Positions 18,818-49,804 of a DNA stretch of 64,000 nt are shown here, piece after piece (the first letter of the stretch is position 1; the number at the start of each line of letters is the position of its first letter). Under the pieces are notes generated by a model that ran no database searches, was not told the DNA's origin, and saw only the letters and a program-made list of their open reading frames with translations. The stretch spans positions 200,843 through 264,842 of the forward strand of contig JBHLOC010000002.1 of the NCBI GenBank assembly GCA_048940925.1, written 5' to 3'. The translations under genes and the position numbers were made by a program. This DNA is from Promethearchaeota archaeon. Lineage in GTDB: Archaea; Asgardarchaeota; Lokiarchaeia; Sigyniarchaeales; SOKP01.

Positions 18818-19702
18818 TTAAAAATCCTTTATTTTCTTTTTAAAAATTAAATCACCAATCTTAGCCTTAAAAATTCGTTCCATTAATGTACATTTAACTT
18901 TCAATAAATAATATACATCTTTATCTGGAATCTCCATTCCATACAGACATTCAAAATTTCCTTGTCCTTTGGATAATATTAATCCTCCTTTTCGATAAAA
19001 ATGCCTTTTGAATTCTTTTGGAGATGTAGTCATGTCTACTCCTGGAATTGGACCTGATTCTATAACTGGAACCAAGTCTGTTAAACCGATGTATTTTGCA
19101 TCTTCTATTGTGGCATCATTTACAACGGGTTCTTCTCTAACTGAATAAATTATTTGCAATTCTGGATAAATTCTTATAAGGGTTGTGATTAATACCTTAT
19201 CAAATACAATTTCTCCGGAATTATCTCCTATTATTAAAAGATGATTTGTCTTTTCTAAGGATTCCTTGAAACTGATATAATCATTGATAACAAAATCTTC
19301 TTTTTTAAAGTTTTTAATATCAGAAATGAGATCTATTTTATGCTGGCTAGCAAAATCAATGGTATTTCCAAGTGCTGCTACAAATATCGCCTCTAACAAT
19401 GGATCATCTGAATTCTCAACAATACTTCTTATTTCATCGTAATATTCTAATGCGAGATCATTGTATTTTTGTTTTAAAGCCTGATATGGATCTTGCTCTC
19501 CCACTACTTCTGCTACTATAGAATAGACAACTTTACCCAAAGCTGGTGCGGCTTTATTTGCTATATCTATATCCCTTAGGGTTTTTATGAACTTTTTTTG
19601 GGCTTCTAATACACTTTTACGGGAGATATTCGGTTTCAGCAATCTCAATCCATTTGAAATCTGATTAAACAAGCATCCTACACATTCAGGTTCTAATTTC
19701 AT
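18818..19702 (-). CDS. ARMT1/DUF89 damage-control phosphatase
   Basis: ECVGC, GNTIDF, DNSGEIVFD, NDAT, SKGQGNFE. Confidence 0.88.
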   Translation of the reverse strand: MKLEPECVGCLFNQISNGLRLLKPNISRKSVLEAQKKFIKTLRDIDIANKAAPALGKVVYSIVAEVVGEQDPYQALKQKYNDLALEYYDEIRSIVENSDDPLLEAIFVAALGNTIDFASQHKIDLISDIKNFKKEDFVINDYISFKESLEKTNHLLIIGDNSGEIVFDKVLITTLIRIYPELQIIYSVREEPVVNDATIEDAKYIGLTDLVPVIESGPIPGVDMTTSPKEFKRHFYRKGGLILSKGQGNFECLYGMEIPDKDVYYLLKVKCTLMERIFKAKIGDLIFKKKIKDF

Positions 19703-32599: not shown

Positions 32600-32633
32600 A
32601 AAATTCAATAATTATTGTTAAGAGTGAATAAAA

Positions 32634-33521
32634 TTGATTTGGAAAACAAGAATAACCGAAATGGTAGATGGTCTTCAATACCCCATTATAATGGGAGCAT
32701 TTGCTATAATAGGAAGAGCTGAATTTACTGCTGCATTTTCAGAAGCAGGGGGTCTAGGTATTTTAACTGCCTTAAATTTTGGAACCTCTGAAACATTTCA
32801 AGAAGAAATTAATAAAATGAAACAATTAACAAATAAACCATATGGTGTTAATTTTACAGTATGGCCACCACAAGTGAAAAGTGCAACTGGTAGAGACAGA
32901 ACAGAAGAATCTTATTTTGATTTTTTAGATATTGCTCTTGATGCAGGTGTTAGAGTATTTACTACATCCGCTTATAAAGCAGCTGAACTCGGAAGGAAAA
33001 TACATAACGCAGGAGGTGTATGGTTTCATAAATGCGCAACAGTAAAACATGCAATATCTGCTGAAAAAGCAGGAGCTGATGGAGTGACGATAGTAGGTCT
33101 TGAAGGAACGGGTTTTAAAAACCCAAATCAAAATACTACACTTGTTAATATGACTATGGCAAGAAAATTGTTAAAGGTGCCACTTATAGCAGCTGGAGGG
33201 ATTGGTGATGCTAGAGGATTTCTCGCTGCATTAGCAATGGGTGCTGATGCAGTATGCTTTGGGAGTGCTATAATGGCAACGAAGGAAAGTCCTGCTCCAG
33301 ATGTATGGAAAAAGCAAGTTTTGAATCAAGATATATTTGATGAAAAATTTTACAAAAAGATTTTTCACCTTGAGCTAAGAGACTCTGGTATTGGTTCAAT
33401 GGCTGTTGGTCATATTAATGAAGAAACTACGATTGAAGAATTCATACAAAATATTATTATAAACGCAGAGAAAATTCTTAAAAATTGGGGAGTAAGAGAC
33501 GAAATATTCAATCATACCTAG
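32634..33521 (+). CDS. Nitronate monooxygenase / FabK-like flavoprotein
   Basis: SEAGGLG, PLIAAGGIGDARG, MGADAV. Confidence 0.85.
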   Translation: MIWKTRITEMVDGLQYPIIMGAFAIIGRAEFTAAFSEAGGLGILTALNFGTSETFQEEINKMKQLTNKPYGVNFTVWPPQVKSATGRDRTEESYFDFLDIALDAGVRVFTTSAYKAAELGRKIHNAGGVWFHKCATVKHAISAEKAGADGVTIVGLEGTGFKNPNQNTTLVNMTMARKLLKVPLIAAGGIGDARGFLAALAMGADAVCFGSAIMATKESPAPDVWKKQVLNQDIFDEKFYKKIFHLELRDSGIGSMAVGHINEETTIEEFIQNIIINAEKILKNWGVRDEIFNHT

Positions 33522-33549
33522 ATTTAATAGTAATAATATTTAAAGATAA

Positions 33550-33900
33550 AGAAGGGACGAGAAGGTGCAACAAATACCCAAGGGTGTTCATTGCGTGGTA
33601 TTGTTTTTCCTTACTTGGAGCAAGGAAGTCTCAACGTATTATTTCAAGCCACGTCGTGAAAAGAACCATAATTCATTGAATAAATTTTTATCCTATAAAA
33701 TATATTACCGTTAGATAATCTCACTAATCCTTGCGGATTAGCCGGATTGAACACCGAATATAAACCATAAGGCTTACATTTTAGTTCAGATTATGCTTTT
33801 ACACACAACCTCCTTTCATATCGTTTCTGATCAACCGATGGTTGTAATACATTGAGGTAAACATTACCTCTTCTCGACGTTCATACCGTAAGATATGAAC
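33550..33900 (-). ncRNA. Unidentified structured RNA region (possibly two transcripts)
   Basis: At least 8 hairpins, several completed by G-U pairs only on the minus strand; GCAA tetraloop; two TATA-like boxes upstream; no convincing ORF. Confidence 0.65.
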
Positions 33901-33920
33901 AATATATGATGTGAAGAAAA

Positions 33921-33935
33921 CCTATTTAAATAAAA
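33921..33935 (-). promoter_or_regulatory. TATA-like box for the structured RNA
   Basis: Minus TTTTATTTAAATAGG ~21-30 nt upstream of the first hairpin (33900); a similar TTTTATAGG at 33692-33700 precedes the second unit. Confidence 0.45.
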
Positions 33936-34223
33936 CTGTTAAGGGGTTATTATGACCTTTTTGTCGGTTTACAACTATTACAGAATTTTTTAGTCGGAAT
34001 CAAGTTTCATTTAAATATTTCATTCCATTTAAATCTAGATTTCATGTGAAAGGAAAAACGAAAAACGATAAAAAGTTAATTTTAGGATTGAATCTTGAAA
34101 AAAGCTTAAATTATTTCAGCGTTAAGGTTAAATTCGACAAAATTTATATATACAATTAAATAAGTTGTGATTATCAAGAGAAGTACAATAATAATAACAA
34201 TTTTGAAAAAAAAGGATTAAATT

Positions 34224-36071
34224 ATGATTACAGATCGAATTTTGTTAACAACTCCTTGTTACCCTTATCCTTCTTTACCTGCGAATGATTCACTTACAGA
34301 TGCGACTGGACAAAGATTTACTCATGGAGATGATATCTTTACACTTGTCTCGCACACTCATTGTTATGCAAATCACATTTTAGCGCAAAATGTTAATCTT
34401 CCAGCAACTTTACTTGAGTACCCGCGCTGGAATAATTTTGTTGAAGAAGTAGATAAAGAGTATGCCATTATTGGGATCAGTGCTTTTCCTGTACATCTTG
34501 ATATGGTTATGAAGATGTGTAAATATATTCGTGAAAAATCTCCCGAAACGAAAATTCTCCTTGGAAGCTATGGAGCTCAGGCTTTTGCGGCACAATATGA
34601 TGAAGAAACTAAAAAAAAATATGTAGATCATGTTGTTCTAGGCGAAGGTGTAAATTTTCTTCGTGAACTATTAAAAGAGGACACAAATCGTCCTATCCAG
34701 CAGAAATTAATGCCTAAGTGTGGTGGAGCGCCACCATTTCTTAATAAATATCCCCGAGGAGGTATTGGGTTTTTAGTTACAGGATTAGGATGTCCTGGAG
34801 GCTGCGATTTTTGTTCGACAACGGAAATGTTTGGAAAAAAAAGGATTGAACTACTCTCCCCAGAAGAGTTTGTTAACCATGTTGAACTTTATCGTAAACA
34901 CTTTAAACAACTTTCTTCAATTTTTGTAATCGAAGAAGATCATTTCCGTCATCCGCGGTGGATGGTAAAAACCAAGGAAAAATGGGAAAAAAATCTGGAT
35001 CTCGTGGAAAACGTTGACTGGACTGGTTTTGGTTCAGTAGATTTCATCTGGCATTTTGCTAGTAATTATGGATGGGATGCCATTCCTGAAACAGGAATAG
35101 GCGCGGTTTTCATTGGTGTAGAATCTAAATTCGCAGGAGAGCATGGCTACAGAAAAGTTAAAGAAGCTGATGCTAGAGAAGTTTTTCATAAACTTCATTC
35201 AATGGGCATTCGTACGCTTGGAGCATGGATATGCGGGTGGGATTATCATAACCATGCAAACATGTATGAGGATCTTAATTATTTTATTGCATGTAAGCCT
35301 ACTTATCAGCAATTAACACGTTTATCTCCATTTCCTGGGACTGAATTATGGCGTAAACTTAAGGAACAAGGAAGAGTTTGTGAAGTACCATGGGAAGATG
35401 TACATTTCTGGAGTGGAGCACAGAAAAACATATCTTTAGAAACTCATGAAACCTTGAATCTAACAGAATATGGATATGATTTGATGTACCGAACATGGGG
35501 TCCATCGATGCTTAGAAGGCTTGAGGTTACATTGAATGGGTATGAATATTGTATGAATTCTGATAATCCATTAATGCGGGAACATAGATCTCAATTATTC
35601 AAACGAGGTTCTGCAACATCTTGGAGTATGTTAGGTGCTATGGATCGTTTTGCTCCTAATGGTGTTGTGCGGAGGAGAGTTCAAAAAGCAGATGAAAGAT
35701 TTAGAGATCTTATTGGTGAACCTACTCCAATGATGGAGTTGATAAGTAAAAATGTTGAACAGAGTGCAGTGAAATTTAAAATGAAACACTTATTTGATCC
35801 GTTTGATCGAAAACCAAGAGAAGAACCCACTAAACGATATCTTTATAACAAAGATAAATCAATAAAAGATGATGATATCCCCTATATTACTGAGTATCCT
35901 AATAAGATTCCAAAAAAGGTTCGCAGGGATATGAAGAGAAATAATTTTAAATATAAGCTCATTAACAAATTCCTTAGCACTAAGTATAGAGTCAAATCCA
36001 CTAAACGTTTGAGTGAATTAGATGAAATTATTTTAAATAATATAAGAGGACAAAGCTATGGAGGTTTCTAA
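34224..36071 (+). CDS. B12-binding-domain radical SAM protein
   Basis: N-terminal cobalamin-binding-like domain (IIGISAF...ILLGSYG...GEG), CPGGCDFC, IGVES, PFPGTELW. Confidence 0.85.
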   Translation: MITDRILLTTPCYPYPSLPANDSLTDATGQRFTHGDDIFTLVSHTHCYANHILAQNVNLPATLLEYPRWNNFVEEVDKEYAIIGISAFPVHLDMVMKMCKYIREKSPETKILLGSYGAQAFAAQYDEETKKKYVDHVVLGEGVNFLRELLKEDTNRPIQQKLMPKCGGAPPFLNKYPRGGIGFLVTGLGCPGGCDFCSTTEMFGKKRIELLSPEEFVNHVELYRKHFKQLSSIFVIEEDHFRHPRWMVKTKEKWEKNLDLVENVDWTGFGSVDFIWHFASNYGWDAIPETGIGAVFIGVESKFAGEHGYRKVKEADAREVFHKLHSMGIRTLGAWICGWDYHNHANMYEDLNYFIACKPTYQQLTRLSPFPGTELWRKLKEQGRVCEVPWEDVHFWSGAQKNISLETHETLNLTEYGYDLMYRTWGPSMLRRLEVTLNGYEYCMNSDNPLMREHRSQLFKRGSATSWSMLGAMDRFAPNGVVRRRVQKADERFRDLIGEPTPMMELISKNVEQSAVKFKMKHLFDPFDRKPREEPTKRYLYNKDKSIKDDDIPYITEYPNKIPKKVRRDMKRNNFKYKLINKFLSTKYRVKSTKRLSELDEIILNNIRGQSYGGF

Positions 36072-49332: not shown

Positions 49333-49656
49333 GACAGCATGAAATTGATTTAAATCAATGTGAGTAGGTCCAAGAAGCTCTAATGAGATATTGAGATGTC
49401 TCCATGCCTTTCTCTTGGTTCTTTTAAGTGTTTTTCAGATAAAAAAAATTCATTTCTGTATTTTTGAATCCAAGGATTAAGACGAATTTCTGCATTTATC
49501 ATAAGTAGGAGCAACGTCAATTATGTTAACTCCATTATCAATTGCGAGTTTTATAGCTTTATTGGCTTCATTTTGATCCACATTCCCAATACCACATCCT
49601 CCTATCGTAATTTTGGATATATTTGCTCCTTTCTTGCTAAAAATACGAGTTTCCAT
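49333..49656 (-). pseudogene. Truncated, frameshifted aldo/keto reductase
   Basis: GGTGA+ATG 49656: METRIFSKKG..ITIGGCGIG..IDVAPTY, frameshift near 49497, then AEIRLNPW..FFLSEKT..HIDLNQFHAV and homology stops. Confidence 0.82.
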
Positions 49657-49804
49657 TTTTTCACCTTTATTTCTTTTTTAAGATACTATTTAATTCTTTT
49701 TAAATTCATATCCTTTTTAAACTAAAAGAGAAAATATTTTAAACTTCCATAGCAATAACTACTTTAAAAATTAAATCTTCCTAAAAATTAAAGAGGAATT
49801 TAAA

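Follow-up and report, generated by a model that had tools for sequence, protein, structure and literature searches.

A modular, structured non-coding RNA gene confined to three genera within a single Lokiarchaeial family

Asgard archaea are the closest prokaryotic relatives of eukaryotes. Beyond the universal RNAs, we know of very few large structured RNAs, almost none of them archaeal, and a literature search returned nothing relevant on an Asgard non-coding RNA (ncRNA) of the kind considered here. An earlier note, made from the sequence of a Lokiarchaeial genome, had marked one intergenic stretch as a highly structured ncRNA locus, apparently composed of two related units and representing a new Asgard family. 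The locus thereby poses three questions: whether an RNA is encoded here at all, whether it is built as one unit or two, and what kind of molecule it might be. We addressed them within a 64-kb window, i.e., the whole stretch of 64,000 nucleotides that was analyzed, and by comparison with related genomes.

The RNA gene lies in a 702-bp gap between two plus-strand genes, a nitronate-monooxygenase-like (NMO-like) gene (32634–33521) and a B12/radical-SAM gene (34224–36071), whose ORFs end at 33521 and begin at 34224, respectively. Across 33550–33900 the GC content is 0.31–0.43, compared with 0.20–0.28 in the adjoining spacer (33900–34250), in agreement with the GC-rich appearance described earlier. 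The RNA is read from the minus strand, antiparallel to both neighbors, and its transcription heads toward the NMO-like gene's 3′ end. A very AT-rich spacer of ca. 280 bp (33943–34223, GC 0.20–0.28), in which neither an ORF nor an Rfam match was found, separates the RNA promoter from the radical SAM gene.

Comparison with catalogued RNAs did not place the locus in a family. Rfam 15 gave no match at the gathering score in the whole window, and a permissive scan of 33400–34300 returned noise only (E > 2, at most 22 bits, far below the cut-offs); the long and variant forms of the RNA described below were equally without Rfam matches. ARAGORN detected no tRNA or tmRNA in the window. Matches to box C/D and H/ACA snoRNAs stayed at noise level (E 4–10), and the conserved boxes are absent from the alignments; a K-turn elsewhere in the RNA is conceivable. 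The Rfam and ARAGORN scans bear out the earlier statement that the region resembles no tRNA, SRP RNA, RNase P RNA, C/D guide or known riboswitch.

Folding energies and comparative analysis both point to a structured RNA. The minus strand of 33540–33905 folds at −117.5 kcal/mol, compared with −75.9 ± 5.6 kcal/mol for shuffled sequences (z = −7.4, with 0 of 100 shuffles as good), and the fold of the plus strand is weaker (z = −3.0). RNAalifold run on 14 sequences yielded 105 pairs, 28 of which show compensatory changes, and an alignment of 34 full-length sequences from two genera (A3) gave a consensus of 119 pairs in 18 helices. Standard pairs fill 91.9% of the cells in A3, as opposed to 36–44% when the 3′ partners are slid by 1–3 columns. 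Both-side changes were found in 50 of the 119 pairs, compared with 17–32 for slid partners and 29.2 ± 3.6 for shuffles (0 of 500 reach 50), where the shuffle controls overstate significance because the sequences are closely related, and the comparison with slid partners is fairer. Compensatory evolution has preserved this fold.

The same alignment identifies the transcribed strand. Several pairs are G-U in most sequences; columns 56/277 and 168/187, for instance, each hold a minus-strand G-U pair in 27 of the 34. These pairs assign transcription to the minus strand and support the earlier reading that several stems need G-U pairs that exist only there. Compensatory changes and strand-specific G-U pairs together indicate that the locus acts at the RNA level and not at the DNA level. 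Among the orthologs, the longest open stretch shifts strand and frame, and the gap runs have lengths that are mostly not divisible by three, from which we conclude that the region is non-coding; no conserved ORF was found in the RNA region among these sequences.

The locus forms one closed fold consisting of a 5′ hairpin, a trunk and a 177-nt head, all on the minus strand. The 5′ hairpin H1 (33879–33900) contains 8 bp, of which four change on both sides; it is present in most forms of the RNA and absent or diverged in two genomes (G013 and G119). The trunk comprises the helices P1 (33870–33878 with 33556–33564), P2 (33860–33868 with 33597–33604) and P3 (33845–33855 with 33631–33641), the latter two of which covary, as well as the side hairpins P10 (33608–33626) and P11 (33567–33594), which stands where a tRNA-like domain would have its T-arm but carries a UUCG-type tetraloop. 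Its 5′ strands (P1, P2, P3) span 33845–33878, and its 3′ strands (P3, P2, P1) with P10 and P11 span 33556–33644; the covariance model built for the 3′ trunk (R2) scores 86.4 bits at 33545–33644. Connectors P3a and P3b (33827–33842 with 33642–33647) join the trunk to a type-A head (33650–33826), which is closed by P4 and contains P4–P9 with five hairpins, including the GCAA-capped P7. With the head model (R1), this segment scores 183.9 bits.

Since the 5′ and 3′ ends pair through P1–P3 and enclose everything in between, and since only the promoter at 33923–33942 is conserved, the locus is one unit, and the earlier proposal of two related units with a promoter each had to be given up. Of the two TATA-like boxes invoked for it, the one within 33923–33942 is conserved, whereas that at 33692–33700 lies inside P9 and is not conserved in orthologs. 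The motif ACGUYGAGA had been read as a repeat; its second copy (33629–33637) lacks conservation and is nothing but the 3′ strand of P3. Arrangements of several units in tandem are found in other genomes, but not here. Most hairpins listed from the single sequence reappear in the comparative structure, at 33879–33900, 33833–33842, 33789–33810, 33757–33780, 33720–33745 (with the GCAA loop), 33608–33626 and 33567–33594. The exception is a hairpin at 33854–33870, for which covariation instead favors the long-range helices P2 and P3: two orthologs break the hairpin and keep P2 through G-C to A-U changes. This local hairpin (GAGGUAAUGUUUACCUC) can form in the present genome in competition with P2 and P3, and may be a co-transcriptional folding intermediate.

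Conservation is unevenly spread over this architecture. The P1 core, CGAGAAG/CUUCUCG, is near-invariant in sequence, with four pairs that never vary among 34 sequences, and the trunk beyond P1 is also well conserved. Most orthologs contain three GNRA-capped hairpins (P3a, P7 and P10). An unpaired CGGU loop is conserved, and the junctions are A-rich. As a separate observation, an 8-bp complementarity between GAACGUCG (33875–33882) and CGGUGUUC (33749–33756) is intact in 24 of 34 orthologs, undergoes a concerted change in one lineage and is mismatched in genus g14. It competes with H1, P1 and P6 and is possibly an alternative or tertiary pairing that involves the conserved CGGU internal loop.

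The gene extends over ca. 359 nt (33545–33903), with a predicted 5′ end at ~33900–33903 and a 3′ end at ~33540–33555. Upstream of each ortholog we found a block consisting of TTAATAG (here TTAACAG), ATTTAAATA, a stretch of ~22 nt and then ATTGTTCA. In this genome, TTAACAG occupies 33936–33942 and the TATA box lies in ATTTAAATA at 33923–33931, so that the promoter (33923–33942) sits ~23–27 nt upstream of the predicted RNA start. Judged by its sequence, the block fits an archaeal BRE/TATA-type promoter with a start at ~33900–33903, a position deduced from promoter spacing. It is conserved upstream of all orthologs and variant forms, and the motif is uncommon genome-wide, with 10 loose matches. 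At the other end, a pyrimidine/U-rich tail (CCUUCUUUAUCUUU, 33540–33555) forms a C/T-rich tract directly past P1 and is kept in orthologs, consistent with the earlier description of a region ending in a pyrimidine tract, which we place at 33540–33564. Oligo-U terminators are known from archaea, and by analogy the tail is a probable terminator. A search with nhmmer found the gene once in this 4.8-Mb genome.

How far does the RNA extend beyond this genome? BLAST against 40 related genomes recovered 15 full-length homologs with 72–91% identity, all of them intergenic and all from the same genus, where they were found among 24 congeners. For broader searches we built one model of the head (R1) and another of the 3′ trunk (R2); the automatic structure of R2 retained five pairs only, which makes this model nearly a sequence profile. 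R1 detected the head in genus g1 (28 of 52 genomes) and in g14 (10 of 42) and gave no match in the other 22 genera searched in the order. R2, which finds the 3′ trunk in all size forms, matched 57 of 135 genomes of the Lokiarchaeial family: 36 of 53 in g1 plus the present genome, 19 of 42 in g14 and one of six in g17, the last confirmed by eye. In 400 genomes of the phylum, the trunk pattern occurred only in this family, three other matches in coding sequence looking like chance. Marginal BLAST matches of ~30 nt in genera g12, g16 and g21 were set aside, as HMMs did not confirm them. The RNA constitutes a so far uncatalogued family, whose range is limited to three genera within a single Lokiarchaeial family. 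The new Asgard ncRNA family anticipated by the earlier note is therefore real as a structured minus-strand RNA of Loki-type archaea: Rfam contributed no family at the gathering score in the window, and BLAST and nhmmer across related genomes uncovered homologs with covarying stems.

Throughout the family, promoter and trunk stay constant, and the head is exchanged, reduced, lost or tandem-repeated, resulting in sizes of ~215–720 nt. In some congeners, a type B form of ~300 nt retains the promoter, H1, P1–P3, P10, P11 and tail as seen here and bears a different head. Short forms of ~245–275 nt (G088, G052, G160, G144) combine the trunk with a small head, and a reduced form of ~215 nt (G129, locus L184, C3 ~121600–121850) has kept the trunk but no more than a remnant of the type-A head. 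Long forms of ~670 nt (two g14 genomes, G046, G085) carry a B-like module and a type-A head on one trunk, and in type C RNAs of 490–720 nt (G019, G094, G138, G056) two to three trunk-like units stand in tandem. One genome (G120, locus L074, G120:C76:5231–5983) contains two adjacent type B genes in tandem, 512 nt apart, and another (G013, locus L185, C21 ~18990–19090) has a second, partial copy that comprises the 3′ trunk only. The copies in G013 and G129 both follow homologous protein genes.

The gene is not needed by every member of the genus. In three congeners with 97–100% completeness, the syntenic site downstream of a membrane-protein gene was devoid of an RNA gene and none of the queries gave a match, which characterizes the gene as accessory and dispensable.

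The genomic context is likewise variable. In this genome the neighbors are the NMO-like gene, the radical SAM/B12 gene and an aldo-keto reductase gene; in relatives they encode a small membrane protein, a zinc-ribbon protein and others. Flanking genes are common only to the closest relatives, and other genomes have different neighbors, which suggests that the RNA gene is independent of them. Across the loci compared, there was no conserved neighboring protein gene that would indicate a partner. A small upstream gene occurs in 17 of 33 related loci (e.g., L003:1011–1385) and encodes a membrane protein of ~125 residues with four hydrophobic helices and without a Pfam family. We considered this protein as the partner of the RNA and rejected it: genomes devoid of the RNA carry the gene as well, and its homolog in this genome (contig C82:42020–42391) is unlinked to the RNA gene.

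In metatranscriptomic data, 33584–33879 is represented with 95–100% identity in contigs from two runs of one mangrove-sediment study. These contigs are of low depth and reveal neither strand nor ends, and DNA may be carried along in libraries of this kind; they therefore document presence in RNA libraries and are not proof of a defined transcript. Contig cover was absent in run X3 and in the flanks (32600–33583 and 33880–34800), which carries no weight either way.

On this basis, we hold with moderate confidence that the minus strand of 33545–33903 encodes, as a gene of its own, a highly structured ncRNA that acts in trans, is modular and dispensable and occurs in three genera. The RNA appears to be neither a cis-regulator nor a guide RNA nor a core housekeeping RNA. 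As the gene is dispensable and fast-evolving, an accessory role in regulation, stress or conflict seems likelier than one in core information processing. The features that bear on function are the retained sequence of P1, the three GNRA hairpins, the A-rich junctions, the exchangeable heads and the patchy distribution. Tentatively, and with less than even confidence, we favor a folded scaffold acting in trans, in which the trunk binds a constant partner and the heads make variable contacts. Such an RNA would work through its three-dimensional fold. The sequence-invariant trunk would offer a docking platform to the constant partner, probably a protein, and the exchangeable, GNRA-rich heads would supply a variable activity or variable contacts. 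Against this scaffold reading, the patchy distribution and rapid turnover of modules fit a conflict-related or selfish element as well.

The RNA might also act without any protein, as a self-assembled, defined multimer or as a ribozyme. Its size, dense conserved helices, three GNRA hairpins (P3a, P7 and P10), CGGU loop and A-rich junctions would suit either role, and the bacterial and phage RNAs ROOL, GOLLD and OLE provide a precedent as RNA-only homo-oligomers that associate via A-minor contacts and kissing loops (Kretsch et al. 2025, PMC12286853). However, a palindromic loop for a kissing dimer was not seen, homology to ROOL, GOLLD or OLE is lacking, and the free swapping or loss of heads is hard to square with a single quaternary architecture or active site. 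We consider protein-free action unlikely.

The comparison with these RNAs is nevertheless instructive. Like the RNA described here, ROOL, GOLLD and OLE are encoded by stand-alone genes, measure hundreds of nucleotides, possess covarying helices and tetraloops and are patchily distributed; they too were found by comparative analysis, and their function is obscure or only emerging (PMC12286853). As a long stand-alone RNA with many covarying helices (119 pairs in 18 helices), the present family shows one hallmark of a large ornate ncRNA. It differs in being archaeal and smaller and in swapping whole heads on a constant trunk, shows no sequence or covariance-model similarity to ROOL, GOLLD or OLE, and gave no sign of an association with phages or prophages. 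The bacterial raiA motif RNA offers a second parallel, with a closing P1 that is strongly conserved in length and sequence and peripheral stems that vary by subtype; its function, too, is obscure (He et al. 2026, PMC12968392). In raiA, however, a pseudoknotted core is conserved and the periphery varies, whereas here the outer trunk is constant and the inner domain varies (PMC12968392). The likeness to ROOL, GOLLD, OLE and raiA is one of kind only and not of homology. Archaeal RNase P and SRP RNAs share a length of ~300 nt, a multi-helix fold with pairing ends and a promoter of their own, yet they are universal and essential, in contrast to this lineage-restricted and dispensable RNA.

A further alternative is that the RNA sequesters a protein, as a decoy of the 6S or CsrB kind in which repeated similar loops titrate an RNA-binding protein. 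In this genome, H1 and P8 have near-identical loops (AUCUUACGGUA and AUCUAACGGUA), most g1 orthologs have a YC-NAAC-GR loop in both hairpins, and the number of modules differs between genomes, as might be expected of a decoy. Yet genus g14 does not retain the loop motif, the present RNA has no more than two copies and there is no candidate protein, which leaves titration rather improbable in our view.

The patchy distribution raises the question of whether the RNA is that of a mobile or selfish element, or what is left of one, be it MITE-like with terminal inverted repeats, the omega/guide RNA of a TnpB/IscB nuclease or retron-like. Its complementary ends (P1–P3) and the paralogs, tandem copies and 3′-trunk-only fragment in some genomes would be in line with such an origin. 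A MITE or the end of an insertion sequence, the latter named in the earlier note as a finding that would overturn its proposal, does not agree with one copy in 4.8 Mb, a pairing with G-U pairs and compensatory changes at the RNA level, and a promoter located outside the supposed repeat. An omega or guide RNA and a retron were rejected, as no nuclease or reverse transcriptase is adjacent and both ends of the RNA are conserved, leaving no variable guide. No transposase, TnpB/IscB or reverse transcriptase gene was found among the neighbors here or in the loci of relatives that were examined. Phage and plasmid collections gave no matches, and a 17-mer scan recovered real members at seven of 80 metagenome loci but at none of six IMG/VR viral loci, the viral-contig matches being due to chance. 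A mobile origin therefore seems quite improbable.

Could a universal RNA have diverged or rearranged beyond recognition, such as RNase P/MRP, SRP, 5S or a tmRNA-like RNA? A failure of the models is conceivable because Rfam recognizes other stable RNAs of this genome with low scores or only in part. Its SRP RNA (RF01857, contig C37:14256–14371, locus L020) is recognized by the S domain only (model positions 126–246) at 43 bits with a cut-off of 96.5, and the remainder of that gene has either diverged strongly or been rearranged. The sole 5S-like gene, found on contig C68 at ~49545–49705 (locus L021, ~1374–1534) in a test with RF00001, reaches 22 bits on a fragment. This 5S-like gene appears circularly permuted, with the 3′ half first, a UUCG-capped helix I and then the 5′ half with CCCGGUCCCAUCCGAACCCGGAA, and it is flanked by the complementary arms AACCACAUAAAUA and UAUUUAUGUGGUU. 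RNase P RNA, by contrast, is readily found (RF00373, contig C41:65126–65448, 132 bits). With genes for RNase P, SRP and 5S RNA located elsewhere in the genome, a blank ARAGORN result, no partial match to these families in 33400–34300 at E ≤ 10 and a gene that is dispensable and confined to three genera, we rejected these identities and regard a disguised universal RNA as highly improbable. Equally improbable is a cis-acting leader, riboswitch, 3′ UTR of a neighbor or small-protein gene, as might be suspected from the position between two metabolic genes: the neighbors lie on the opposite strand and vary by genome, no same-strand gene follows the RNA at this locus, nor was the kept association with a same-strand regulated gene seen there that would mark a riboswitch or leader, the RNA has its own promoter and a terminator-like tail, and no ORF is conserved.

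Returning to the trans-acting scaffold, a bolder version of it, which we regard as speculative and rather unlikely, is a “plug-in” RNA platform in which the invariant trunk recruits one partner or self-assembles and the interchangeable heads deliver different activities. If true, this would give the large ornate RNAs a first counterpart in archaea, with a modular logic that is undescribed for those. As it stands, a well-supported family of 215–720 nt in which exchangeable heads sit on a fixed trunk provides a defined target for structural work and for the search for partners, and it indicates that RNA genes missed by annotation pipelines are still hidden in Asgard genomes.
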